Source of the DNA: Prescottella agglutinans
GTDB lineage: Bacteria; Actinomycetota; Actinomycetes; Mycobacteriales; Mycobacteriaceae
Reading direction: 5' to 3'
Length of the DNA: 24,000 nucleotides
Assembly (NCBI RefSeq): GCF_004011865.1
Contig: NZ_RKLP01000014.1
Coordinates: forward strand, 33,226-57,225
In this document: positions 3,024 to 16,775 of the stretch, piece by piece
How the letters are laid out: every line of letters begins with the position of its first letter
How positions within the stretch are numbered: position 1 is the first letter of the stretch
The notes under the pieces: generated by a model
What the model saw: only the letters and a program-made list of their open reading frames with translations
What the model was told of the DNA's origin: nothing
Databases searched by the model: none
Translations under genes and position numbers: made by a program

Positions 3024-4361
3024 ATGCTTTTGGGGGATACGAAGCCCGGCAACGCCGGCACCGCCCACACGGGCCTGCTCGAAAAGAGCTATATCGCAAC
3101 AGGATTCAAGTTCGACGTGGCGATCGTCGGTTTGGGGTACGTCGGACTACCGACGTCGTTGGCCTTCCATGCCGCCGGATGCAGGGTCCTCGGCATCGAC
3201 GTCAGCGAGGAACGACTCGACGTCGTCCGACGACAACGCGCCGATCTCGTCGACGCGGATCGTGAGCGCCTCGCCCACGCACTCGAGGACGACGGTTACG
3301 AGACCACCAGCGACACCGCGCGCCTCGCCGAGGCCGCCGCGGTGATCGTGTGCGTACCCACCCCGGTCGACGAGCACCTCACGCCGGAACTCGGGATCCT
3401 GCGCAGGGCATGCAGGTCCGTCGTCGAGCATGCCGTTCCCGGCCAGGCGCTGATCCTGACGTCCACGACCTACGTGGGCAGCACCCGGGACCTGCTCGCC
3501 ACCGAACTGAACGCGCGCGGCTTGACGGTCGGCACCGACGTGTTCGTCGCCTTCAGCCCGGAGCGCATCGACCCGGGCAACGACCGGTTCACCCACGAGG
3601 AGGTTCCGCGCGTCGTCGGAGGCGTCACGCCGGCGTGCACGGATGCCGCGACCGCGGTTCTGCGCCGCTACACGAAGAACGTCCACGGGGTCGATTCGAC
3701 CGACGCCGCCGAGATGACCAAGCTCGTGGAGAACACCTTCCGAGCCGTGAACATCGCGCTCGCAAACGAATTCGCGGAGATCTGCCGATCGCTGCGTCTG
3801 GACGTGATGGGCGTGATCAACGCTGCGGCGACGAAGCCCTACGGGTTCATGCCGTTCTTCCCCGGGCCGGGGGTCGGCGGCCACTGCATCCCGTGCGATC
3901 CGCACTACCTGCTGTGGCAGTTGCGCAAGAAGCGGCTGAGCACTCCGCTCATCGAGCAGGCGATGAGCGGCATCGCGGCCCGACCCCACCAGGTCGCCGA
4001 ACGCGCCCGGCAGACGCTGTCCGAACACGGCCGCGGGATCGTCGGCGCACGCGTCCTGGTCGTCGGCATCTCCTACAAGCCCAACGTCGAGGATCTGCGG
4101 GAATCGCCGGCGTTGGAGATCATCGCCGAACTCGTCGAGATGGGCGCGGACGTGCGGTACCACGACCCGAACTTCCCGGTCCTGACCCTGTCCGACGGCA
4201 CCGTCCTCACCGACGTCGCCGACCCGGGAGCGTTCGAGGCGGATCTGGTGATCGTCCACACCGTGCACGACGAGGTCGATCTCGGCTGGCTCGAGACGGC
4301 ACGGGCGGTCCTCGACACCACCTACCGACTGGATCGCGTTCCGAGTCGAGTCCCGCTGTAG
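3024..4361 (+). CDS. Nucleotide-sugar dehydrogenase (UDP-glucose/GDP-mannose dehydrogenase family; possibly a UDP-N-acetylhexosamine dehydrogenase of TviB/WbpO/WecC type)
   Basis: It has a Rossmann motif VAIVGLGYVGLP, a catalytic-Cys motif GGHCIPCDP and the C-terminal signature ISYKPNVEDLRESPA. AAGGGG (3011-3016) lies 7 nt upstream of ATG 3024. An in-frame GTG at 3117 (MAIVGLGYVG) is an alternative start. The substrate cannot be assigned by eye. Confidence 0.85.
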   Translation: MLLGDTKPGNAGTAHTGLLEKSYIATGFKFDVAIVGLGYVGLPTSLAFHAAGCRVLGIDVSEERLDVVRRQRADLVDADRERLAHALEDDGYETTSDTARLAEAAAVIVCVPTPVDEHLTPELGILRRACRSVVEHAVPGQALILTSTTYVGSTRDLLATELNARGLTVGTDVFVAFSPERIDPGNDRFTHEEVPRVVGGVTPACTDAATAVLRRYTKNVHGVDSTDAAEMTKLVENTFRAVNIALANEFAEICRSLRLDVMGVINAAATKPYGFMPFFPGPGVGGHCIPCDPHYLLWQLRKKRLSTPLIEQAMSGIAARPHQVAERARQTLSEHGRGIVGARVLVVGISYKPNVEDLRESPALEIIAELVEMGADVRYHDPNFPVLTLSDGTVLTDVADPGAFEADLVIVHTVHDEVDLGWLETARAVLDTTYRLDRVPSRVPL

Positions 4362-4393: not shown

Positions 4394-5404
4394 ATGCGCA
4401 CGATGAGAACCACAGTCACCGGAGGGGCCGGATTCATCGGCAGCCACCTGGTCGAGTACCTCCTGCGGCAGGGAGACGAGGTGGTCGTGCTCGACGACCT
4501 GTCGACCGGGCGACTCGCCAACCTCGCATCGGTTGCCGACGCCGACGGTTTCCGCTTCGTGGAAGGGTCGATCCTCGACCGCGCCACGGTCGACAGCGTG
4601 ATCGCGGGCACCGACCGGGTGTTCCACCTCGCGGCCGCGGTCGGCGTCCGGTTGATCGTCGACCGCCCGCTGGACAGCCTCCGCACGAATATCCACGGCA
4701 CCGAGAACGTCCTCGACGCATGCCGCTCCGCCGGATCCGTTCTGCTGCTGGCGTCGACGAGCGAGATCTACGGGAAGAACACCTCCGATGCCCTGTCCGA
4801 GGAGTCCGATCGAATCCTCGGTTCGCCCCTCACCGCTCGATGGACGTACGCCGCCGCGAAGGGGATCGACGAGGCGTTCGCCCACGCGTACTGGCGCGAG
4901 TTGGGACTGCAGGTGGCGACAGTTCGCCTGTTCAACACCGTCGGCCCGCGGCAGACCGGCCGATACGGGATGGTCGTCCCGACGCTCGTCGGACAGGCAC
5001 TGCGAGGCGAACCGCTCACGGTGTTCGGGGACGGACTGCAGACCAGGTGCTTCTCGTTCGTCGAGGACGTGGTGCCGGCGATGGTCGCAATCGCCGAGGA
5101 GCCCGCCACGTACGGTCAGGCCTTCAACCTCGGCGGGGCGCGTGAGATCTCGATCCTCGAACTCGCGGAGCGGGTGATCGAGGTGCTGGGCTCCGACAGT
5201 CCGATCACTCTGGTGCCGTACGACCAGGCGTACGCCCCGGGGTACGAGGACATGCGTCGGCGGGTGCCCGACAACCGGCGGGCCCGCGAACTGGTGGGCT
5301 TCGAACCCGTCACGCCGCTCGACGAGATCATCGTGCGTGTCGCCGCGGGACTGCCGGAGACGGACGCGCACGCGGTCCGTGAACAGGTGGTGGCGCGCCG
5401 ATGA
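4394..5404 (+). CDS. NAD-dependent epimerase/dehydratase (extended SDR; nucleotide-sugar 4-epimerase or decarboxylase type)
   Basis: This is the C-terminal part of track ORF 3350..5404. It reads MRTMRTTVTGGAGFIGSHLVEYLL (GxxGxxG) and has a YAAAK (YxxxK) catalytic motif and LFNTVGPRQ. Start is ATG 4394 or ATG 4403; 4403 has better spacing to GAAGGGA at 4386-4392. The stop overlaps the next gene's start (ATGA at 5401-5404). Confidence 0.85.
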   Translation: MRTMRTTVTGGAGFIGSHLVEYLLRQGDEVVVLDDLSTGRLANLASVADADGFRFVEGSILDRATVDSVIAGTDRVFHLAAAVGVRLIVDRPLDSLRTNIHGTENVLDACRSAGSVLLLASTSEIYGKNTSDALSEESDRILGSPLTARWTYAAAKGIDEAFAHAYWRELGLQVATVRLFNTVGPRQTGRYGMVVPTLVGQALRGEPLTVFGDGLQTRCFSFVEDVVPAMVAIAEEPATYGQAFNLGGAREISILELAERVIEVLGSDSPITLVPYDQAYAPGYEDMRRRVPDNRRARELVGFEPVTPLDEIIVRVAAGLPETDAHAVREQVVARR

Positions 5405-6465
5405 CGCATCGCCTCACGCGCCGGGAAGGTCCACGGACGTGCATGACCGTCGCGCTCGCGGCGACGGCCGCGCTCTCGCAGCTCAATTCGGACGCCTACC
5501 TCGCCCGTCCGCCGGAGCTGCCGCTGGTGATCGGTGCGATTCCGTACTGGGACCGGAGTGCCGCACTGATGTCGACGTACACCCACGTGCGATACCTCGA
5601 CATCGTCTCGCCCTGGTCGTACTCGGTGGCCGCCGACGGGACGGTGGCGGCCACCTCGGGATCGGACCTGGATGCCGACTCCGCGATGGCGACCCGGCTG
5701 GGCGCCAGCAACATCCGAACCATCCCGACGATCACGAACACCACCGCCGGGGAGTGGGATCGTGACACCGTGGCATCGGTCCTGTCGGATCCGAGCCTGC
5801 GTGGCGCGCACATCGACGCGCTGACCGCGCTGGTCCGCGAGCACGGGTTCGACGGGGTCCAGATCGACTACGAGAATCTGCTGTCCGCGGATCGTGTCGG
5901 CTTCTCGACGTTCGTCGGCGAACTGGGCGCGGCACTTCACCGGATCGGCCGGGTCCTCCACGTCGCCGTACACGCCAAGCCGAACGACGCCGGCTACGGG
6001 CCGCACAACGAGGCGCAGGACTACGCCGCCGTCGCCCGCGGCGCCGACAAGGTGATCGTGATGGCGTACGACCGGCACTGGGCGACGAGCACCGCCGGGC
6101 CCATCGCTCCGTACGACTGGGTCGAGGAGGTCCTGCGGTACGCGATCACGCAGATCCCGCGCGAGAAGCTGGTACTCGGCGTCGGGTTGTACGGCTACGA
6201 CTGGGTCGGTTCGTCCGCCACTCCCCTCACCTGGACCCAGGTGATGTCGATCGCAGCGGCGCAGAAACCCCTGCTGTCCTGGGACGAGACCAGCAGGTCG
6301 ACCCACTTCGCTTACATCCTCGACGGCATCCTGCACGAGGTCTGGTTCGAGAACGCGCGCAGTGTCGAGGCCAAGATCGACCTCGCACGCCGGCACGGGC
6401 TCGCGGGTGTCGCGCTGTGGCGCCTCGGCGGGGAGGACCCGTCGATCTGGGGACTCGGCCCGTGA
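5401..6465 (+). CDS. Glycoside hydrolase family 18-like protein (chitinase/cortex-lytic-like) with variant catalytic motif
   Basis: ORF 5401..6465. FDGVQIDYE aligns to the GH18 DGxDxDxE motif: Glu and the adjacent Asp are kept, and the middle Asp is replaced by Gln. MAYD, GLYGYDW and GVALWRLGGED are typical GH18 barrel strands. The gene is translationally coupled to the epimerase. The start could instead be ATG 5443 (MTVALAATAAL). Confidence 0.8.
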   Translation: MTHRLTRREGPRTCMTVALAATAALSQLNSDAYLARPPELPLVIGAIPYWDRSAALMSTYTHVRYLDIVSPWSYSVAADGTVAATSGSDLDADSAMATRLGASNIRTIPTITNTTAGEWDRDTVASVLSDPSLRGAHIDALTALVREHGFDGVQIDYENLLSADRVGFSTFVGELGAALHRIGRVLHVAVHAKPNDAGYGPHNEAQDYAAVARGADKVIVMAYDRHWATSTAGPIAPYDWVEEVLRYAITQIPREKLVLGVGLYGYDWVGSSATPLTWTQVMSIAAAQKPLLSWDETSRSTHFAYILDGILHEVWFENARSVEAKIDLARRHGLAGVALWRLGGEDPSIWGLGP

Positions 6466-6525
6466 CCGTCGAGGCGACCTGTCGATCGACACGACCCTGT
6501 TCCCACCCGCATCGGAGGATCAGCC

Positions 6526-8313
6526 ATGTGCGGAATCATCGCCTGCCGGACCGCCGGTCCGGCCCTCGACTATCTGCTGCCGGCCCTGAAGCGACTCGAG
6601 TACCGCGGCTACGACTCCGTCGGCGTCGCGGTCCGGACCGGTGACGGCGACATCGCGCGACTCCGGACGATCGGGCGGATCGGCGCGCTCGAACAGCAGG
6701 TCACGGAGTGGTCCGGCCCCGAACTGGACGGACTCGGGATCGGACACACCCGCTGGGCCACGCACGGCGGCGTCGACGAGCAGAACACCCACCCGCATCT
6801 CGACTGCACCGGGCGGATCGCGCTGGTGCACAACGGAATCATCACCAACGCCGACGAACTGGCCCGGGAGCTCCGTGCGACCGGCCACCGGTTCACCTCC
6901 GAGGTCGACAGCGAGGTCGTGGCACACCTCGTCGAGGACGATCTCGCGCTGTCGGGTGACCTGTTGACGGCGGTCCAGCGGACGGTGGAACGCCTGTCCG
7001 GGTCGTGGGCGCTCGCGGTACTCGAACAGGGAACCGGACGACTCGTCGCCGCGGCGCATCGCTCACCGCTGCTGATCGCCCGCGCCAACGGCGGCGATTT
7101 CGCCACCAGCGACGCGGCCGCGATCTCCGACTGGGTGGACGAGTTCCGCCCGCTCGAGGACGGCGACGTCGTGGAACTCGGCGAAACCTTCACGTGGAGT
7201 CGCCGCGGGCAGCGGTGTGCGCCTCCGCCGATCACCCGGCACACCTGGAATCCGACCGACATGAGCCTCGGCCGGCACACCGACTACATGAGCAAGGAGA
7301 TCGGCGAGCAACCCCAGGTCGCGGCGCGCCTGCTCGGACAGATCGGCGGTGGGGTGGCCGACGGATCGCTGTGGTCCGGGCTCGGCCTTCCCGACTTCGA
7401 TCGGCTGCGGGTGATCGCGTGTGGCACGTCGCTGCACGCGGGTCAGGTGATCGGCAACTGTGCCCGCGGGATCGGCGGGATACGTCCCACCACGACGGTC
7501 GCCAGCGAGACCCTCCGGGAACCGCTCGAGCCCGGCACGCTCACCCTTGCCATCAGCCAGTCGGGCGAAACCGCCGACGTACTACGCGCACTGGACCTGC
7601 AGGCACCCGGCGATGGCCCGGTACTCGCACTGACCAACTCCTCCCATTCCACCTTGGCGCGTCGCGCCGACGCGGTCCTCCCCTGTTCGGCCGGACCCGA
7701 GATCGGCGTGGCCGCCACGAAGACGTTCGTGTGCCAGGTCATCTCCGGTGTCGCACTGGTGATGTCGGCGATGGTCGCCAACGAACGGCTCTCGCCGGAC
7801 GCCGCCGCGCGCCTGATGCGGGCGCTCAACGGCGCCCCCGCACGGCTCGCAGCGGCAACCGAGACGGCGGAACGACTCATCCCGCCCCTCGTGGACGAGT
7901 TGACCACGGCGACAGGCTTCGTGTTCCTGGGCCGCGGTGCCGGCGTCCCCTACGCCGCCGAGGGCGCGCTCAAGCTGAAGGAACTGACCTACCGCTGGGC
8001 GGAACACCATCCGGCGGGCGAACTCAAACACGGGCCGCTCGCGGTGATCGAACCGGGGACCCCGGTCGTCGTCGTCGACCACGGAGACGCGCGGCTCGAC
8101 GCGAACGTCGCCGAGGTCCGCGCCCGCGGCGGACGCATCATCAGCATCGGCACCGAGGGGACCACGGTTCCCGTGCTGCACCCCGGTCCGGCTCCGTGCG
8201 GACCGTTGGAATCCGTCGTCCCGATGCAGGTCCTCGCCCGCGCACTCGCGCTCGCGCTCGGACGGGACGTCGACAAGCCCCGCAATCTCGCCAAGTCAGT
8301 GACCGTCGAATGA
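6526..8313 (+). CDS. glmS: Glutamine--fructose-6-phosphate aminotransferase (isomerizing), cluster-embedded copy
   Basis: It has the MCGIIA N-terminus (Cys2 nucleophile) and RLEYRGYDSVG. SIS-domain motifs CGTSLHAG and AISQSGETADVL are present, and the C-terminus is the canonical KPRNLAKSVTVE. GGAGGA (6514-6519) lies 6 nt upstream of the ATG. Confidence 0.92.
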   Translation: MCGIIACRTAGPALDYLLPALKRLEYRGYDSVGVAVRTGDGDIARLRTIGRIGALEQQVTEWSGPELDGLGIGHTRWATHGGVDEQNTHPHLDCTGRIALVHNGIITNADELARELRATGHRFTSEVDSEVVAHLVEDDLALSGDLLTAVQRTVERLSGSWALAVLEQGTGRLVAAAHRSPLLIARANGGDFATSDAAAISDWVDEFRPLEDGDVVELGETFTWSRRGQRCAPPPITRHTWNPTDMSLGRHTDYMSKEIGEQPQVAARLLGQIGGGVADGSLWSGLGLPDFDRLRVIACGTSLHAGQVIGNCARGIGGIRPTTTVASETLREPLEPGTLTLAISQSGETADVLRALDLQAPGDGPVLALTNSSHSTLARRADAVLPCSAGPEIGVAATKTFVCQVISGVALVMSAMVANERLSPDAAARLMRALNGAPARLAAATETAERLIPPLVDELTTATGFVFLGRGAGVPYAAEGALKLKELTYRWAEHHPAGELKHGPLAVIEPGTPVVVVDHGDARLDANVAEVRARGGRIISIGTEGTTVPVLHPGPAPCGPLESVVPMQVLARALALALGRDVDKPRNLAKSVTVE

Positions 8314-8336
8314 TCGACCGAACCGGAAGGAACAGC

Positions 8337-10004
8337 ATGAACAGTCGCGACTGGACACGGCCCTCCCGCCACGGAACTCGGCATCCACGTCAGCACCGAC
8401 CACCGACGCGACCCCGGCGGAACCGCGTGCTCGGGCTGATCAGCGTCCTGGCGCTGCTGGTCGGACCGGCCCTGATCGCGGTCGGTGCCGGCGCGCCCGC
8501 CGGTGCGGCAGGCGCACGCACCGTGGTGAGTCTGACGTTCGACGACGGTAACGCGGACGCGACCGTTGCTGCACAGACGCTGCAGGCCAACGGGCTCCGC
8601 GGAACCTTCTTCGTCCCGTCCGGCTACATCGATCAGCCCGGGTACATGTCACAGGCCGATCTTCACGGTATCGCCGCCGCAGGCAACGAAATCGGCGGCC
8701 ATTCCGTGACGCATCCGGACCTGAGCACGATGTCGCGGGACGAGGCGACCCGGCAGTTGTGCAACGACCGCGTGAACCTCACCAACTGGGGATTCCAGGT
8801 CACCTCGCTCGCCTATCCTTTCGCGTCGGCAACCGCCGAGACCGAATCGATCGCGCAGCAGTGCGGCTACAACAGCGCCCGTGGCCTCGGGGACGTCGAG
8901 ACCCGATTCGGGTGCGCCGGCTGTGATCTCGCCGAGAGCATTCCGCCGGCGAACCCGTACTACACGAAGGCTCCCGACCAGGTGGACAACACCTGGACCC
9001 TCGCCGACCTGCAGAACGTGGTCACCAACGCCGAGAACAACGGCGGCGGGTGGGTCCAGCTGACCTTCCACCACGTGTGCGCGAACAACTGCGATCCGGG
9101 TGGACTGTCGATCTCGCCGACGCTGCTCGACCAGTTCGCCGCGTGGCTCGCCGCGCGGTCGAGCAACAACACGGTGGTGCAGACCGTACGTGAGGTGGTC
9201 GGCGGCGCCGTCGCTCCGGCCGCACCCGGTCCCGTCCCGCCCGCACCGGCCCCCGGTGCCAACGGAGCACCCAACCCCGGCCTGGAGACGGTCGACGCGA
9301 CGACCGGACTGCCGCAGTGCTGGATGGCCGGCGGCTACGGCGTCAACACACCGACTTTCGCCACGGTGCCCGAGGCGCACGCCGGCAGTATCGCCGAGCG
9401 CCTGACGATGGCCGGCTACGTGGACGGCGACGCGAAGCTGCTTCCCAAGCTGGATCTCGGTGAATGCTCGCCGGGAGCCACTCCCGGACACACCTACGCC
9501 CTGAAGGCCTGGTACAAGTCCACCGCACCGACCCAGTTCGCGGTGTACTACCGGACCGCGATCGGCACATGGGCGTACTGGACGTCGAGCCCCTGGTTCG
9601 CGGCCGCACCCGAGTACACCGCCGCGGAGTGGACCACACCGCCGGTTCCTGCCGGTGCGACCGGAATCAGCTTCGGGCTGAACCTGTTCGGCAACGGGCA
9701 GTTGCACACCGACGACTACGAACTCCACGACACCGCCGCGACGCAGCCCTCCAGCGGGTCCTGGACCGTCGGGACCACCACACCGACCGCCCCCACCACC
9801 ACGCCCGGGCCGGTGACTGCGGCGGCCGGACATGCGAAGCAGAAGGCCGCACCCGGTAAGCACGCACCGGGCAAGCCCGCACCCGGTACCGATCGGAGCA
9901 GCCGACGGGGTCCGGCCGAACCGCCCGTCCACTACGTCCCGGGTCCGGACGAGCTGAGGCCCGGTCAGACCTTCCTGCCGGACGCCGGCAACCTCGGCGA
10001 GTAG
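8337..10004 (+). CDS. Secreted or membrane-anchored polysaccharide deacetylase (CE4 NodB domain) fused to a carbohydrate-binding-like beta-sandwich domain and a Pro/Thr/Ala-rich tail
   Basis: This is the tail of track ORF 7005..10004. It has a basic N-terminus plus a hydrophobic segment (VLGLISVLALLVGPALIAVGAGAPAGAAGA). CE4 motifs are TFDDG and GGHSVTHPD. After a PAPAPG linker comes a roughly 150-aa Trp/Tyr-rich domain (GHTYALKAWYKST...WAYWTSSPWF...GISFGLNLFGNGQLHTDDYEL), then TTTPTAPTTTPGP and APGKHAPGKPAPG. Start is ATG 8337 (GGAAGG 6 nt upstream) or ATG 8310, which overlaps the glmS stop (ATGA). Confidence 0.85.
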   Translation: MNSRDWTRPSRHGTRHPRQHRPPTRPRRNRVLGLISVLALLVGPALIAVGAGAPAGAAGARTVVSLTFDDGNADATVAAQTLQANGLRGTFFVPSGYIDQPGYMSQADLHGIAAAGNEIGGHSVTHPDLSTMSRDEATRQLCNDRVNLTNWGFQVTSLAYPFASATAETESIAQQCGYNSARGLGDVETRFGCAGCDLAESIPPANPYYTKAPDQVDNTWTLADLQNVVTNAENNGGGWVQLTFHHVCANNCDPGGLSISPTLLDQFAAWLAARSSNNTVVQTVREVVGGAVAPAAPGPVPPAPAPGANGAPNPGLETVDATTGLPQCWMAGGYGVNTPTFATVPEAHAGSIAERLTMAGYVDGDAKLLPKLDLGECSPGATPGHTYALKAWYKSTAPTQFAVYYRTAIGTWAYWTSSPWFAAAPEYTAAEWTTPPVPAGATGISFGLNLFGNGQLHTDDYELHDTAATQPSSGSWTVGTTTPTAPTTTPGPVTAAAGHAKQKAAPGKHAPGKPAPGTDRSSRRGPAEPPVHYVPGPDELRPGQTFLPDAGNLGE

Positions 10005-10022
10005 CCGCGGCGTCCACCCATC

Positions 10023-10059
10023 GCCGACCGGGCCGAGGTCGGATCTCGGCCCGGTCGGC
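10023..10059 (+). terminator. GC-rich stem-loop (about 15 bp stem, 7-nt loop) between the deacetylase and lipoprotein genes; candidate terminator, attenuator or RNA-stability element
   Basis: gccgaccgggccga (10023-10036) is the exact reverse complement of tcggcccggtcggc (10046-10059), and one more G-C pair can form inside. It starts 19 nt after the deacetylase stop. No T-tract follows, which is common in high-GC actinobacteria. Confidence 0.5.
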
Positions 10060-10110
10060 ACCACCGGGGAGAAATCAGCTCGACAGGGAAACCAGATGGA
10101 GGAGCAGCGC

Positions 10111-10860
10111 ATGGCCATCAAAACCATCTCGGGCCTGCTCGGCGTCGCCGCCGTCGGCATCGCCGTCACGGGATGCGCCGCGGATGCGGCCCAACCCACC
10201 GCCGCCGACGGATACCCGTGGCACACGGACATCGTGGCGACCACCTTCTGGGTCGGCGAGATCTTCGATCCCGCTGCCGAGGACGGGAGCCAGGAGATGT
10301 CCGCCTACGACTCGAACTGGCTCGGGAGCTACGGCGGATGCGACGGTGTCGCCGTCGACGGGGCCTGCCGGACCGAGCCCCGCACCGCCGGCAACGGCTA
10401 CTTCCCGACGCAGATGACACCACGCGAGAACCCCTTCTACCTCGACCTGCCGTTCGACGACGTCAACGACGACGTCGCGTTCGAGCAGCGCGGTTCGGTG
10501 ATTCCCTGGGCCGACGAGGCGCCCTACCGCGATCACCTGTCGGATCCTTCGGTCAGCCTGATGAAGAACCGCTGGGTGCGGATCCGCAGCGGAGACAACA
10601 CCTGCTACGGCCAGATCCAGGATGCCGGGCCGGCGAACTACCACGATTCCGCGTACGTCTTCGGCGCGGACGACGCCAGACCCGCCAGCGACGAGTTCAA
10701 CGGCGCGGGCCTCGACGTTTCCCCGGCCTTGAACGGCTGCCTCGGGTTCAGCGAACTCGACGGCGAGAACGACCGCGTCGACTGGCAGTTCGTCGACGAC
10801 GGCGACGTCCCGCCCGGACCGTGGCGCACGGTCGTCACGACGAGCGGGGTCCGGCAGTGA
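10111..10860 (+). CDS. Putative lipoprotein of unknown function (C-terminal region shows weak RlpA/expansin-like double-psi beta-barrel motifs)
   Basis: Track ORF 10096..10860. I prefer ATG 10111 because GGAGGAG (10098-10104) lies 6 nt upstream. The signal peptide is MAIKTISGLLGVAAVGIAVTG|C with lipobox V-T-G-C. The mature part has TTFWVGE, NPFYLDLPFDD and NRWVRIRSGDNTCYGQIQDAGP...GLDVSPAL. That last segment resembles the DPBB consensus (xVxVxx..G.s..v.v.DrGP...iDLS.aa), but only at motif level. Confidence 0.7.
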   Translation: MAIKTISGLLGVAAVGIAVTGCAADAAQPTAADGYPWHTDIVATTFWVGEIFDPAAEDGSQEMSAYDSNWLGSYGGCDGVAVDGACRTEPRTAGNGYFPTQMTPRENPFYLDLPFDDVNDDVAFEQRGSVIPWADEAPYRDHLSDPSVSLMKNRWVRIRSGDNTCYGQIQDAGPANYHDSAYVFGADDARPASDEFNGAGLDVSPALNGCLGFSELDGENDRVDWQFVDDGDVPPGPWRTVVTTSGVRQ

Positions 10861-10909
10861 CCGATTCACCTCAACGTGTTCCTCTCCTTCTCGAGTGCAG
10901 GGGGTTTCG

Positions 10910-12277
10910 ATGTCGACAACTGTCCTGATCATGCTGCTGGTGTTCGGTCTCAACACGCTGTTCTGGACCACGGTGGGTCTGGGGCGGGAGGTCGCCTCCT
11001 GGTGGGTCCGGTGGCGCGGGAAACGTTCCGCTGTTCGGCCCGGCCCACCGCTCCTGACGCCGGCCGACGTGGCCGTGCTCGTGGCAGCCCACAACGAGGA
11101 ACTGGTGATTGCCGAGACGATCGCCTCCGCGACGTCGCTCGTGCCGGCCGCCAACGTCTTCGTCGTCTCCGACGGATCCTCCGACCGGACCGCCGATATC
11201 GTCCGCGCGGCGGGCGCACGGGTCCTCGAGCTGAGCCCGAACAGGGGCAAGGCCGGGGCACTCGCAGCGGGGATCGAGCACTTCGATCTGTGTGAGCGAT
11301 TCCAGGTGGTCACGATGCTCGACGCCGACACCCATCTGGCGCCCGACTACCTGACCACCGGGCTCGCTCAGATGTCCGAACCCGGGGTGGTCGCCGTCGC
11401 GGGGCGGGCGACCACGATCTCCGCGCCCGATCAGCTGACCCGCTTCGGGCGGCTCCTGGTGGCGTATCGGGAGCGGGTGTACGTCGCGGTGCAGTACCTG
11501 CTCAAGTACGGTCAGGCCGCACGCTGGGCGAACGCCGTCACGATCGTGCCCGGGTTCGCCAGCATGTACCGCACCGAGGCCCTGAAACAGATCGACGTGA
11601 GCGCGCCCGGCCTGGTCATCGAGGACTTCAACATGACCTTCGAGGTCCACGCCAAGCAGCTGGGCCGCATCGCCTTCCATCCCCGGGCCGCGATCGCCTA
11701 CACCCAGGATCCCGACAACTTCCGCGACTACGTCAAGCAGGTTCGACGCTGGGCACTCGGGTTCTGGCAGACGCTGCGGCGCCACCGACTTCACGTCGGC
11801 CGATTCTGGGTGGCATTGGCCGCGTATGTCGCCGAACTGGTGACCAGCAGTCTCCTGTTCGTTCTCCTCGTACCGTTGCTGCTCGTCTCCGTCGTCGCGG
11901 GGGTCTTCGGGAACGGCGCCGGGAGGTGGGAGCTGGCCGGTGTGCTGCCGCCCCAGGCAGTACTCCTCGGTGTACTGGTCCCCGATTTCCTGCTCACCGT
12001 GTTGGCAGCCGTCGTCAGTCGCCGCCCTCACTATCTGCTCTACGGACTGGCGTTCCCCGTCATTCGCATCGTCGACGCCGCAATGTGTCTGCGGACGATT
12101 CCGCTCGCGTGGCGCAGTCGAGACACCGGCGTATGGCGAAGTCCCACGCGCCGTTCCAACGCGAAGCACCGGGCCGGCACCGTCTCGGCGACACCTCTGC
12201 CGGTCACCGGCTCCAGCCGATCGCGACTGCACATCGTCGAGGACGACGGTCGCGAACCGCGAGGTGAGATCGCCTGA
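10910..12277 (+). CDS. Membrane-embedded processive family-2 glycosyltransferase (PgaC/IcaA/NodC/HasA/cellulose-synthase-like polysaccharide synthase)
   Basis: Track ORF 10895..12277. I prefer ATG 10910, with AGGGGG 5 nt upstream. It has an N-terminal TM segment (TTVLIMLLVFGLNTLFWTTV). The full synthase motif series is present: VAAHNEE, SDGSSDRT, NRGKAGALAAG, LDADT (DxD), PGFASMYR, IEDFNMT (ED) and KQVRRWALG (QxxRW). At least three C-terminal TM segments follow. Confidence 0.88.
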   Translation: MSTTVLIMLLVFGLNTLFWTTVGLGREVASWWVRWRGKRSAVRPGPPLLTPADVAVLVAAHNEELVIAETIASATSLVPAANVFVVSDGSSDRTADIVRAAGARVLELSPNRGKAGALAAGIEHFDLCERFQVVTMLDADTHLAPDYLTTGLAQMSEPGVVAVAGRATTISAPDQLTRFGRLLVAYRERVYVAVQYLLKYGQAARWANAVTIVPGFASMYRTEALKQIDVSAPGLVIEDFNMTFEVHAKQLGRIAFHPRAAIAYTQDPDNFRDYVKQVRRWALGFWQTLRRHRLHVGRFWVALAAYVAELVTSSLLFVLLVPLLLVSVVAGVFGNGAGRWELAGVLPPQAVLLGVLVPDFLLTVLAAVVSRRPHYLLYGLAFPVIRIVDAAMCLRTIPLAWRSRDTGVWRSPTRRSNAKHRAGTVSATPLPVTGSSRSRLHIVEDDGREPRGEIA

Positions 12278-12343
12278 CACCGCGGCACACCACCGGCACA
12301 CGGAAACACCACTTGTCCGCACTATACGTAAGGAACCTTCGCA

Positions 12344-12982
12344 ATGATCTCGAAGTCGACCAACGCACGCCGCCGCCGGGCCGCCCTGCCCGCGGCCACG
12401 ATCCTGACCACGGCCGGCGCCCTGCTCCTCGGGACCGCCGGCACGGCGACGGCCGCCGAACAGACCGCATCCACCCCCGCCGGCGCACTGACGGTGACCC
12501 TCACCAACGACGTCGTCGAGTCGGTTCCCAGCCTCACCATGATGCCGACGTCGAGCGAAGGCGTCGTGTCCGCCGCGGCCGTCGCCACTGCGACCGGGCC
12601 GGGCGCACAGGACATCACGGGCGGCACGCTCGACCTCGGCTATCAGGTCGGATGTGCTGTCGACGTCTCCGGCGGTGTGCAATTCGCGGTCGAGACACCC
12701 GCCGGTCCCACGCTCACGCTCTTCCCGACACCCGGAATCGGTATGAACTTCGGCGTCACGCCGTCGGTCCTGATCAATCCCAAGTTCGGTGTCAGCCAGG
12801 ATGTCTCGCTCGGCAAGCAGGTGGTGAACGGGCCCGACGCCGCGGTGTCGTTCGACGCGGTCCGCGTCAAGGCCGAGGGATGCATCGGTGGAGTCACGGT
12901 TCGTCCGTATGCGGTCTACACGGTGACGACCGCCCACGGGAGCCACTCGGTCGCGACGTACGGAAGTCCCCGCGCGCTCTGA
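12344..12982 (+). CDS. MspA-family mycomembrane porin
   Basis: ORF 12344..12982. The signal peptide is MISKSTNARRRRAALPAATILTTAGALLLGTAGTATA|AEQ. The mature part aligns by eye with M. smegmatis MspA: GGTLDLGYQVGCAVDVS against GTLELGYQIGFPWSLG, GGVTVRPYAVYTV against GGVLLRPFARLIA, and SVATYGSPRAL against SVTTYGEPWNMN at the C-terminus. AAGGAA lies 7 nt upstream of the ATG. Confidence 0.85.
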   Translation: MISKSTNARRRRAALPAATILTTAGALLLGTAGTATAAEQTASTPAGALTVTLTNDVVESVPSLTMMPTSSEGVVSAAAVATATGPGAQDITGGTLDLGYQVGCAVDVSGGVQFAVETPAGPTLTLFPTPGIGMNFGVTPSVLINPKFGVSQDVSLGKQVVNGPDAAVSFDAVRVKAEGCIGGVTVRPYAVYTVTTAHGSHSVATYGSPRAL

Positions 12983-12990
12983 CGGTAGAA

Positions 12991-13024
12991 CTTCTCGCCC
13001 GCACCACATGGTGCGGGCGAGAAG
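12991..13024. terminator. Bidirectional intrinsic terminator hairpin between the convergent porin and ANTAR genes
   Basis: cttctcgcccgcacc (12991-13005), loop acat, then ggtgcgggcgagaag (13010-13024) form a perfect 15-bp stem. It starts 9 nt after the porin stop and ends 48 nt before the stop of the minus-strand gene at 13072. Confidence 0.8.
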
Positions 13025-13071
13025 CTCATTCGTCGGCGACTGACCTGGTCGGGATGAGATTTCGGAGAAAG

Positions 13072-13773
13072 TCACACGCGCAGTTCGAGCGTGACGATCG
13101 CTTCGGCGACCGCGTGCACGCTCGCGTTGTGCGACCGTGCGTGACGACGGATCAACTGGTAGGCGGCGTCGACGCCGATGCCGTTCGCGTTGGAGATGAT
13201 CCCCTTCGCCTGTTCCACGACGATGCGACTGGTGAGTGCCTGCTCGAGTTGCCCCGACAGACGCTGGAAGTGACTGACCGCCGACCTCTGGCTCAGGAAC
13301 ACCGATGTCATCTCGGCCAGGCAACCGACCATGGCGATCTCGTCCTCGAGCCAACGGCGCGGACGATCCGAGACCAGGACGAGTGCGCCGACGGAGCGTA
13401 GACCGTGCCGGAGCGGAAAGACCGCCAACGACACCACACCCGAGCGTCGCGCCTCGGCGACGAATTGCGGCCAGGCCTCGCGGTGATCGTCGACGGCGGC
13501 GATACGCAGAATGCTCCCGCGCGCGATCGCGTCCGCGCCCGGGCCGTCCGAAACCAGTTGCGCCAGGCGGTCGAGGGCGATCCCCGGCCCGGTCGACGTC
13601 GTCACCGTGGCCGTCGCGCCGTCGAGATCGGTCACGACGCCGCCGCCGGCAAGACCGAGAAGGCCCGAGACCAGTTCGACCAGACCCGTCAGCACCGCGT
13701 CCGTTTCGGATGATTCCGCCTGCAGTCTCGTGAATCTCTCCACGGCAACCGCGAAATGGCTTTGAACAGACAA
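13072..13773 (-). CDS. GAF and ANTAR domain-containing RNA-binding regulator (antiterminator-type)
   Basis: Track ORF 13072..13980 (-). The C-terminus LEQALTSRIVVEQAKGIISNANGIGVDAAYQLIRRHARSHNASVHAVAEAIV matches the ANTAR consensus (L..AL.SR..IeQAKGil......deAf.lLr..Sq..n..l..vA..iv). The preceding ~150 aa are GAF-like. I prefer the TTG start at 13773, which has a strong GAGGGGGG 7 nt upstream. ATG 13896 is the alternative, but the extra 41 codons lie in low-GC, non-coding-looking sequence. Confidence 0.85.
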   Translation of the reverse strand: MSVQSHFAVAVERFTRLQAESSETDAVLTGLVELVSGLLGLAGGGVVTDLDGATATVTTSTGPGIALDRLAQLVSDGPGADAIARGSILRIAAVDDHREAWPQFVAEARRSGVVSLAVFPLRHGLRSVGALVLVSDRPRRWLEDEIAMVGCLAEMTSVFLSQRSAVSHFQRLSGQLEQALTSRIVVEQAKGIISNANGIGVDAAYQLIRRHARSHNASVHAVAEAIVTLELRV

Positions 13774-14272
13774 TCGATAGCCCCCCTCATTCGAGAACTG
13801 AGGCTCCCCCGACAATCGAAGATTTCGGCACCCACCGGGACCCGCAGTGGCGTTTACACACTCGCGAGCCGTTCGTAATTCGTTCGAAATTCCCATGTTC
13901 ACTGTCGCTCTTCCGCTCCTTCGACCGCGGCCGCTCCCCCACGTGCGACCGACCCGATGCCTTCGACCCGACAGAAACACTTGCGCCAGAATGCTATCGC
14001 ACGCAGCCGAGATGCCGCCAGAGGACGACCTACGGTGCCGTATCGTTCACCCGGCCGTTCACCCCGACGCCGGCGATCTGCGATACCTGCACCAATCACG
14101 CCGAATATCCGATCCGATACACACATTCGGCACCCGAATTGGGATCCTATTTATTCGATCTTGATCAGTAAGATAAACGACAGACCGACAGTTCCCGCAA
14201 CCCGACGACAACGACATCTCACGCAAATGCAACGCCGACCCGGGGAAGACCGGAAGAGTTCGTTGCGTGCAG

Positions 14273-15280: not shown

Positions 15281-15456
15281 GCACCTCCGTGACCCGCAGG
15301 ACTGCCAGCAGTTTCCATCAAGATCACTGCCGGGGCCGGCCACGCGCCAACCCGCCCGAATAACGAAAGTGGAACGAAATCTGCGCTGATCCGCTCACAC
15401 CCGCGACCGGCCCCATGGTGCAATGGGGCGAGTCTCCCGGACAGGAACGGTGCGGT

Positions 15457-16473
15457 ATGACCATCGTGGACAACGCTGTCTACGTCGACGGTGTTCGCGT
15501 CGACACCCCACAGACGCTCGACTGCACCTACGAGACGATGAACCGGCTCGGCGGAATGGCCTGGATCGGCCTCTACCGACCCGACGCCGACGAAGTCCAT
15601 TCCCTGGCGAGCGAATTCGGTCTCCACCACCTCGCCGTCGAGGACACGATCGCCGCACACCAGCGCCCCAAGCTCGAGCGCTACGACGAGACGCTGTTCG
15701 TGGTCCTGCGGCCCGCCCGCTATCTCGACGACGTCGAGAAGGTCGAGTTCGGCGAGGTGCACGTGTTCGTCGGATCCGACTTCGTCATCACCATCCGGCA
15801 CGCCGAGTCCCCCGATCTCGCGCAGGTACGACGCCGACTCGAAGCGAATCCCGAACTGCTGCGCCTCGGCCCCGAGGCCGTGTTGTACGCGATCCTGGAC
15901 CAGGTCGTCGACGAATACCTACCGGTCGCCGCGGGCCTCGAGAACGACATCGACGAGATCGAGAACCAGGTGTTCACCGGCGACCCCGCCGTCGCCAAGC
16001 GCATCTACGACCTGTCCGGCGAGGTCATCGACTTCCAGCGCGCGACGCATCCGCTGGTGTCGATCCTCGAGGCCCTCGAACGCGGATCGGACAAGTACCA
16101 CGTGGATCTCGAACTCCGACGCCACCTGCGCGATGTGCTCGACCACACACTGCGCGTCGTCGAGCGGGCCGACTCGTCCCGCGCGCACCTGCAGACCGCG
16201 TTGTCGGTGCACGCCACGCTCGTCGCTCAGCAGCAGAACGAGGAGATGCGTCGGCTGACGGTCACGAGCCTGAACCAGAGCGAGGAAGTGAAGAAGATTT
16301 CCGCCTGGGCCGCAATACTTTTCGCTCCGACGCTGGTCGGCACGGTGTACGGGATGAACTTCAACGACATGCCGGAACTGGGCTGGGCGTTCGGCTACCC
16401 GATGGCGTTGCTGCTCATGGTCGCGACGTCGCTGACACTGTTCTACGTCTTCAAACGCCAGCGCTGGCTGTGA
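15457..16473 (+). CDS. corA: CorA-family magnesium/cobalt transporter
   Basis: Track ORF 15415..16473, trimmed to ATG 15457 (MTIVDNAVYVDGVRV, a typical actinobacterial CorA N-terminus). It has the signature YGMNF (GMN motif) followed by two C-terminal TM helices (ISAWAAILFAPTLVGTVYGMNF...GYPMALLLMVATSLTLFYVFKRQRWL). Confidence 0.92.
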   Translation: MTIVDNAVYVDGVRVDTPQTLDCTYETMNRLGGMAWIGLYRPDADEVHSLASEFGLHHLAVEDTIAAHQRPKLERYDETLFVVLRPARYLDDVEKVEFGEVHVFVGSDFVITIRHAESPDLAQVRRRLEANPELLRLGPEAVLYAILDQVVDEYLPVAAGLENDIDEIENQVFTGDPAVAKRIYDLSGEVIDFQRATHPLVSILEALERGSDKYHVDLELRRHLRDVLDHTLRVVERADSSRAHLQTALSVHATLVAQQQNEEMRRLTVTSLNQSEEVKKISAWAAILFAPTLVGTVYGMNFNDMPELGWAFGYPMALLLMVATSLTLFYVFKRQRWL

Positions 16474-16524
16474 GCGTCCTCGAGGTTGACAGTGCCCATA
16501 CCCGCTGGCACCCTCGACGTGCAG

Positions 16525-16688
16525 CACCTCGTTAGGCGAGGCTCCTGCACGAACACAGGCCACTGATCTCACGACGTCGAGAGACGCCCAAGATCAGGAC
16601 AGATTTCCCCGGCTTAAGGGGTGATCCCAAGTGGCTTCCCACGGACGTGGGATACGTCGTGCAGTGCCGAAGCTCTTACGTGGAGGTG
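16525..16688 (+). promoter_or_regulatory. M-box (ykoK leader) Mg2+-sensing riboswitch aptamer upstream of mgtC
   Basis: The conserved blocks of the B. subtilis mgtE M-box are matched in order: GTTAGGCGAGGCTCCTG (16531-16547; Bsu GUUAGGUGAGGCUCCUG), GAGAGACGCCCAAGATCAGGACAG (Bsu AAAGACGCUAAUGGGUCAACAG), TTAAGGGGTGAT (Bsu AUAAGGUGAU) and CAGTGCCGAAGCTCTTACG (Bsu CAGUGCUAAAGCUCUACG). Supporting helices are P1 cacctc (16525-16530) with gaggtg (16683-16688), cacgacg (16571-16577) with cgtcgtg (16665-16671), ctgatct with agatcag, and cccac-ggac-gtggg. Confidence 0.85.
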
Positions 16689-16775
16689 TTCCGACCGGAC
16701 GGTCACTGCCGAATGCGTGGTCGCCGCGAAACCCCTGCGTTGCATTGTCCCTGCGTCGCGTTGTCGACGAAATCG

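Follow-up and report, generated by a model that had tools for sequence, protein, structure and literature searches.

The window is the whole stretch of 24,000 nucleotides analysed here, from Prescottella agglutinans (a genus formerly included in Rhodococcus). It carries a gene for an MspA-family porin, the last of eight + strand genes: UDP-glucose/GDP-mannose dehydrogenase (UGDH), epimerase, GH18 family glycoside hydrolase-like protein, GlmS, CE4 deacetylase, lipoprotein, GT2 synthase and porin. An earlier note on this DNA had proposed that the porin is a dedicated conduit through which the polysaccharide made by the synthase crosses the mycomembrane. A different reading is favoured here, with somewhat better than even chances: the porin would be a diffusion channel peculiar to its clade, with a neutral constriction. 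Its gene is probably transcribed together with the operon by virtue of its insertion site and would be maintained for a function independent of the synthase. According to this reading, an MspA-type pore would have been inserted once, in one clade, at the end of a polysaccharide operon. It would be transcribed with the operon owing to its position, the link being positional or at most regulatory, and it would be maintained for a diffusion function that does not need the synthase. A diffusion pore is preferred to a dedicated secretin because the evolutionary maintenance of the porin is independent of the synthase. Passage of the polymer through the porin is at best unlikely; the argument for it is gene position, which reflects one evolutionary event.

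Retention of the porin in species that have lost the synthase

Prescottella soli (loci L002/L003) and Rhodococcus sp. LBL1 (L089/L090) lack UGDH and the GlmS-CE4-lipoprotein-GT2 block. As located by BLASTN, the losses correspond to positions 3044-4346 and 6470-12233 of the window, with identical junctions in both species. A remnant of 44 nt of the 3′ end of GT2 is found in both. The identical junctions and the remnant indicate derived deletions inherited from a common ancestor. UGDH is found in the equal position at loci L001, L004, L087 and L092. The locus left by the deletions reads epimerase-GH18-porin, on one strand. Since their split, P. soli and LBL1 have diverged by about 0.26 synonymous substitutions per site (dS).

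The ratios of non-synonymous to synonymous substitution rates (dN/dS) are given below, first for P. soli versus LBL1 and then for pairs of species with an intact cluster. Values in parentheses are 95% confidence intervals.

Epimerase: 0.51 (0.35-0.76); intact-cluster pairs, 0.11-0.13. The segment with the YxxxK catalytic motif is lost.
GH18: 0.46 (0.33-0.65); intact-cluster pairs, 0.25-0.29. In P. soli, Gln stands in place of the catalytic Glu (DYE to DYQ).
Porin: 0.28 (0.16-0.47); intact-cluster pairs, 0.19 and 0.29. No other change.
Flanking GAF-ANTAR gene: 0.21; intact-cluster pairs, 0.19-0.24. No other change.

The porin is intact in both deletion species, and its constraint is similar to that of neighbours that do not belong to the cluster. 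No close GT2 ortholog from P. soli or LBL1 was found among the best 120 of the 1745 matches of the GT2 homolog search. As judged from these substitution patterns, the retention of the porin while leftover pathway genes decay speaks most strongly, among all the evidence, against a dedicated role in export. The conduit proposed in the earlier note is thus disfavoured by two species that keep the porin under unchanged purifying selection without a synthase, while the epimerase and GH18 decay.

The gene order left by the deletions, with epimerase, GH18 and porin on one strand, would fit a chitoporin-like oligosaccharide channel that is paired with GH18 and admits or releases N-acetylglucosamine (GlcNAc) oligomers. 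Both genes would then have survived the deletion because they form a functional pair. A precedent for a pathway-linked uptake porin of MspA type is given by RjpA of Rhodococcus jostii RHA1. According to PMC8399759 (citing Somalinga and Mohn 2013), cholate induces the expression of this MspA-like porin, which contributes to uptake of the compound. As described there, RjpA resembles the window porin in being an MspA-family porin tied to one pathway rather than a housekeeping pore, and its link to cholate uptake means that a pathway-linked MspA porin is not unprecedented. It differs in that it serves uptake of a small steroid acid for catabolism, whereas the window porin adjoins a biosynthetic pathway and its proposed cargo is an outgoing polymer. 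Against the pairing, GH18 is relaxed in the deletion lineage (0.46 versus 0.25-0.29) and has lost its catalytic Glu in P. soli, where the porin is unchanged. GH18 has no obvious signal peptide by inspection. It also belongs to the synthase module of hosts without a mycomembrane (L009, L013, L036, L062). The pairing is considered very unlikely, having been downgraded because GH18 decays where the porin does not.

Distribution of the porin and of the synthase module

Orthologs of the porin (66-87% identity) are limited to P. agglutinans, P. defluvii, P. soli, Rhodococcus spp. ACT016, AG1013/BE178 and LBL1, and a few metagenome contigs. Among 1.84 billion representatives, they form a single 50%-identity cluster (287 bits), the next relative being at 107 bits and 45% identity; the porin thus has a clade of its own. 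The exhaustive search of representatives gave 154 members of the family. The 20 best-scoring named ones come from Skermania, Nocardia, Gordonia, Rhodococcoides, Jongsikchunia and Mycobacteroides, and none from Prescottella. In Nocardia panacis and Rhodococcoides yunnanense, the genes of the nearest relatives lie in unrelated contexts. A scan of metagenomes added one further ortholog contig, with the order GT2-porin-ANTAR-lipase, and one distant tandem pair. No literature on Prescottella porins was found.

The synthase module is distributed differently. Eighty species loci with GT2 and flanks of 10 kb were examined, and the search for MspA used the window protein as well as a hidden Markov model of the wider family. 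The GT2 homologs (52-64% identity) belong mostly to actinobacteria that have no mycomembrane, among them Arthrobacter, Cryobacterium, Nakamurella, Leifsonia and Herbiconiux. Within 10 kb of GT2, the lipoprotein is found in 70 of the 80 species loci, CE4 in 69, GlmS in 26 and GH18 in 13. The GT2/CE4/lipoprotein module as such is present in 65-70 of the 80, mostly in hosts without a mycomembrane. An MspA-family open reading frame (ORF) lies next to GT2 in 3 of the 80, and all three belong to one narrow Prescottella clade. The 10-kb flanks are free of MspA genes in two other mycolate hosts that possess the cluster, Rhodococcus globerulus and Mycobacterium sp. E2733 (L080).

Members of the clade that have the synthase all keep the order GT2-porin-(hairpin)-ANTAR. 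The clade genomes are syntenic over the whole neighbourhood, PriA and MetK included, so that the GT2-porin adjacency counts as one evolutionary event. The expectation that related GT2/CE4 clusters would consistently carry an MspA gene was not borne out, and the lack of phylogenetic co-occurrence with the synthase, named in the earlier note as what would refute a dedicated conduit, was largely found. Taken together, the distribution points to a synthase module derived from actinobacteria without a mycomembrane, to which the porin was attached once, in one clade; this evidence points away from export.

Some loci show particular features. In R. globerulus (CP079698.1, L086), the cluster is rearranged: UGDH, epimerase, GH18, GlmS and CE4 are on one strand, GT2 is divergent, and no gene is called for the 254-aa lipoprotein. 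The closest relative of the porin outside the ortholog group (45% identity) is found in Skermania sp. ID1734 (L093, 10001-11974). There, a GT2 fused to a GtrA-like domain is encoded 72 nt downstream on the same strand; this protein is of the polyprenyl-phosphate sugar synthase type and differs from the GT2 of the locus. The adjacency of MspA and glycosyltransferase in Skermania may be due to chance. In CP121458.1 (L008, labelled Prescottella defluvii SampleD3_15), each of the locus genes falls into several frames, a pattern that suggests indels left uncorrected in long reads. The GT2 of this record has 92% identity to that of the P. agglutinans window but only about 75% to that of the type contig of P. 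defluvii, which casts doubt on the species label.

Transcription of the locus and features of the predicted pore

The features that concern the porin are listed below by position and strand.

10895..12277, + strand: GT2 processive-type synthase (PgaC/IcaA/cellulose-synthase-like), multi-pass membrane protein (PF00535, PF13641, PF13632).
12278..12343, + strand: GT2-porin intergenic gap of 66 nt, following the GT2 stop codon (TGA at 12275-12277).
12344..12982, + strand: MspA-family porin gene, 212 aa (PF09203).
12991..13024, no strand assigned: perfect stem of 15 bp closed by a loop of 4 nt; the porin and GAF-ANTAR genes converge on it.
13072..13743, - strand: GAF-ANTAR regulator gene, convergent, outside the operon (PF03861, PF01590).

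The arrangement described in the earlier note was confirmed in detail: the porin is the terminal gene of the polysaccharide locus and starts exactly 66 nt past the GT2 stop on the same strand, the gap has no recognisable promoter, and a perfect 15-bp stem follows the porin immediately. The scan of positions 10000-14000 for sigma-70-like promoter and canonical terminator consensus sequences found none, and by eye no TANNNT -10 element lies at a sensible distance in the gap. RNA folding of the gap is no better than that of shuffled sequence (z +0.46). The last ~30 nt of the gap (TCCGCAC..AGGAAC..TCG.A-ATG, including the Shine-Dalgarno sequence) are kept across six species, deletion strains included. 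An internal porin promoter is possible within this conserved 5′ region.

The hairpin starts 8 nt past the porin stop. Its arms, CTTCTCGCCCGCACC at 12991-13005 and GGTGCGGGCGAGAAG at 13010-13024, fold with -45 kcal/mol (z -6.0 on the + strand, -5.9 on the - strand), a value equalled by 0 of 200 shuffles. The core CUCGCCCGCAC/GUGCGGGCGAG is kept in five other species, with compensatory changes in the outer stem (L001, L004, L087, L002, L089). The hairpin has no U-tract. It is likely a bidirectional, U-tract-less terminator that ends the operon; located between convergent genes, it could serve both. The GT2-porin gap is 11-77 nt in every orthologous locus with a synthase. Co-transcription of synthase and porin, which the earlier note had suggested, is plausible because the gap is short (at most 77 nt) and free of a terminator and because a conserved hairpin follows the porin. 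The porin is thus probably co-transcribed with the synthase.

The hairpin common to the porin and to the GAF-ANTAR gene also bears on a reading in which the porin is functionally tied to the downstream clade-specific GAF-ANTAR regulator and a class-2 lipase, the exopolysaccharide locus merely abutting. The distribution of the regulator is as narrow as that of the porin: its orthologs with at least 70% identity are found only in the same Prescottella/Rhodococcus sp. set, the next ones (~40%) being in Nocardioides and metagenomes. Its dN/dS is likewise unchanged in the deletion lineage, and the order porin-ANTAR-lipase is kept in all loci, deletion loci included. This reading is also held to be very unlikely. 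The convergent orientation means that the two genes share no transcript, and folding and the scan with Rfam detected no ANTAR-type RNA target near the porin. Their common distribution may reflect no more than a segment that is clade-specific as a whole. To our knowledge, ANTAR regulators and lipases have no functional link with porins.

The porin gene starts with ATG, 9 nt upstream of which is a Shine-Dalgarno sequence (AAGGAA). Its product has 100% identity to an entry from P. agglutinans. The protein matches PF09203 with 119.2 bits (cut-off 22.9, E 2.5e-34) over profile positions 5-177 of 179. By inspection, its N-terminus (MISKSTNARRRRAALPAATILTTAGALLLGTAGTATA/AE) has an RRRR n-region, a hydrophobic core and an A-T-A/AE (AxA) site; the porin would therefore be secreted, as expected from a signal peptide in a mycolate host. 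The PDB sequence search retrieved MspA of Mycolicibacterium smegmatis (1UUN, E 3e-9, aligned residues 74-209), with which the porin shares about 26% identity. Orthology with MspA was considered and rejected: the score for the NCBIfam equivalog NF053716 'porin MspA' is 38.7 bits versus a cut-off of 280, and the acidic constriction D90, D91, D93 is not kept. The ORF at 12344-12982 is classified from its sequence as an MspA-family (PF09203) porin, yet not as an MspA ortholog. No second MspA ORF was found in the window.

An AlphaFold2 model of the porin monomer was built on 32 relatives. The rim domain (residues about 38-107 and 147-206) is predicted with a predicted local distance difference test score (pLDDT) of ~90. 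Within the stem hairpin (about 108-146), residues 112-144 have a pLDDT <50, a low confidence of the kind expected for a monomer; the conformation of the stem is taken from the alignment with MspA. A Foldseek search with the model gave 1uun_A (8.6e-11) and the MspA rim domain 2v9u_A (TM 0.84) well ahead of other matches. The assignment to the MspA family made in the earlier note therefore holds for both profile and predicted rim fold. By homology with MspA, the porin would oligomerise into a water-filled channel that spans the mycolic-acid outer membrane.

In the HMMER alignment, MspA residues D90 and D93 are matched by L124 and L126 within PTLTLFPTP, D91 falls opposite a gap, and the vestibule residue D118 aligns with K147. 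The PTLTLFPTP constriction loop is uncharged in all orthologs of the porin. The stem region of the window porin (G103-V154) has 52 residues versus 60 in MspA and is about 15 residues shorter than in the nearest relatives. Since the residues aligned with the acidic constriction of MspA are uncharged, the alignment suggests a pore less cation-selective than MspA. The stem alignment being uncertain, these predicted features would neither require nor exclude the passage of a glycan. Two cysteines, C104 (GYQVGC) and C180 (VDGC.G), are almost invariant across the subfamily (Prescottella, Nocardia, Gordonia, Skermania); the corresponding residues of M. smegmatis MspA are F and A in the HMMER alignment. 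A conserved C104-C180 disulfide is possible.

A dedicated or primary export conduit would be a co-expressed porin that passes the nascent, partly deacetylated GlcNAc-type polymer, in a role like that of PgaA, BcsC or AlgE. Such a role would fit the operon-terminal position of the porin, the gap without a terminator and the conserved terminator after the gene. It would also fit the GT2-porin adjacency in every clade genome that has the synthase and the separate clade formed by the porin. The uncharged aligned constriction would not trap a cationic deacetylated polymer. The ~1-nm constriction of MspA lets single-stranded DNA through and could thus be wide enough for a linear glycan chain. This conduit is nevertheless considered unlikely. 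The adjacency is one event in closely related, fully syntenic genomes, and no MspA gene lies next to the homologous cluster in R. globerulus or Mycobacterium sp. E2733. The constraint on the porin is unchanged after deletion of the synthase, while epimerase and GH18 decay. The 212-aa protein consists of the MspA domain only, with no periplasmic scaffold or TPR-like (tetratricopeptide repeat) domain, and no published precedent was found. A variant that combines both functions is quite unlikely: an MspA-type octameric pore with an uncharged constriction would have been recruited as mycomembrane exit for a partly deacetylated GlcNAc-type exopolysaccharide while also acting as a general pore. The latter function would account for the survival of an export pore after the loss of the synthase.

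Several observations weigh against the favoured reading of a clade-specific diffusion porin. The porin forms a separate clade (287 versus 107 bits) nested in the subclade that carries this version of the locus, which fits a specialised role. The tight, terminator-free GT2-porin junction is kept in every clade genome with a synthase. For a gene of 212 codons, the dN/dS intervals are wide, and a second, more divergent synthase could be encoded elsewhere in P. soli or LBL1. The stem (112-144) is modelled at pLDDT <50, and the predicted channel activity and oligomeric state come from homology only. Of the earlier note as a whole, what stands is the identity of the gene, its operon-like setting and its separate clade; the dedicated secretin does not stand.

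The other genes of the locus are listed below in order. Bit scores are those of the profile named. Alternative starts are given where found.

3024..4361, + strand: UGDH, UDP-glucose/GDP-mannose dehydrogenase family, first gene of the locus (PF03721, PF00984, PF03720).
4403..5404, + strand: NAD-dependent sugar epimerase/dehydratase (PF01370, 188.8 bits); the start was set via ortholog alignment.
5443..6465, alternative start 5401, + strand: GH18 family glycoside hydrolase-like gene (PF00704, 104 bits).
6526..8313, + strand: GlmS-type glutamine-fructose-6-phosphate transaminase, hexosamine precursor supply (NF001484, 550 bits; TIGR01135, 533 bits; both above cut-offs).
8337..10004, alternative start 8310, + strand: CE4 polysaccharide deacetylase (PF01522, 69.9 bits).
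10096..10860, + strand: conserved lipoprotein 'Lipo254', 254 aa, lipobox VTGC, core partner of GT2 and CE4.

The best NCBIfam match of GT2 is PgaC/IcaA (TIGR03937), with an alignment over the full length and 83.9 bits versus a cut-off of 422.3. An assignment as PgaC/IcaA poly-beta-1,6-GlcNAc synthase was rejected, this score being far from the equivalog cut-off. By its profile matches, GT2 is a processive-synthase-like enzyme. CE4 has a membrane or signal segment at its N-terminus and a long C-terminal extension. In GH18, the motif FDGVQIDYE has Gln instead of the second Asp of the usual DxxDxDxE in every species of the clade. Because of this replacement, the mechanism of GH18 may differ from that of classical chitinases.

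Lipo254 has no match in profile searches of Pfam and NCBIfam. An alignment of 15 sequences has 84 invariant columns, and the motifs YPWHT.IV.TTFWVGE, NPFYLDLP.DD, MKNRWV, CYGQ.QDAGP and G.DVSPA.NGCL are kept. Its single-sequence structure model is unusable (pLDDT 36). Judged by its conservation, Lipo254 seems to be a core part, so far uncharacterised, of an exopolysaccharide module that is widespread in actinobacteria.

The GC content at third codon positions is even across cluster, porin and flanks (0.81-0.91) and is uninformative on joint acquisition. The scan of the whole window with Rfam found an M-box (magnesium) riboswitch (RF00380, 147.6 bits) at 16521-16692 on the + strand as the sole regulatory RNA. 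The M-box sits just past a CorA gene (15415-16473) and just ahead of an MgtC-like ORF (MDTTIIILRVALGLGLGALVGIERQW...).

Comparison with known systems and significance

The window porin resembles MspA, the main porin of M. smegmatis, in its Pfam family, its predicted fold (a rim beta-sandwich into which a stem hairpin would be inserted), its similar size, its N-terminal signal peptide and its mycolate host. MspA differs in its acidic D90/D91/D93 constriction, the absence of Cys at the C104/C180 positions and its longer stem region. Unlike that of MspA, the gene of the window porin closes a polysaccharide operon.

MspA-like proteins are general cell-wall channels of Rhodococcus and related genera (PMC9233653). 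Among them, PorA and PorB of Rhodococcus ruber and PorA of Rhodococcus corynebacteroides are general diffusion channels in lipid bilayers (PMC9233653). These proteins and the window porin are PF09203 members of Nocardiaceae. PorA and PorB of R. ruber are a tandem pair, thought to be a porin operon, whereas the window porin is single and follows a synthase gene. The MspA pair of metagenome contig Ga0307410_10332335 (L097 1-1190, 1.2 kb), two tandem ORFs with ~32% identity to the window porin, resembles the R. ruber arrangement.

The likeness to PgaA, BcsC, AlgE and PelB/PelC is one of gene position: an outer-membrane channel gene in an operon with a GT2-type synthase and CE4. The Gram-negative exopolysaccharide exporters are monomeric beta-barrels of 16-18 strands. 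They usually carry a periplasmic TPR scaffold as a fused domain or have one as a partner, and their synthases accompany them across taxa. The window porin has an unrelated fold and no scaffold domain. Unlike PgaA, BcsC, AlgE and PelB, it does not co-occur with a synthase beyond one clade, and it outlasts the loss of the synthase. Its classification as a component of synthase-dependent secretion was rejected, as neither co-occurrence across outer-membrane taxa nor dependence on the synthase was found.

The GT2/CE4/lipoprotein module of Arthrobacter, Cryobacterium and Nakamurella includes homologs of the window GT2, CE4, lipoprotein, GlmS and GH18. It differs in its hosts, which have no mycomembrane, and in having no porin; the MspA gene is attached in the Prescottella version only.

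No paper in the literature search connected an MspA-type porin with the export of polysaccharides, and none described a dedicated mycomembrane polysaccharide channel. If export through the porin were true, a polysaccharide export channel would be described for the first time in a mycolic-acid outer membrane. The porin would then be a concrete, genetically tractable candidate for the passage of capsular or matrix polysaccharides across the mycomembrane of mycolate bacteria, in a genus that includes an animal pathogen. The value of the finding lies in a well-defined new MspA subclade with a predicted neutral constriction, and in a natural deletion series (P. agglutinans versus P. soli and LBL1) that makes the export hypothesis cheap to test.

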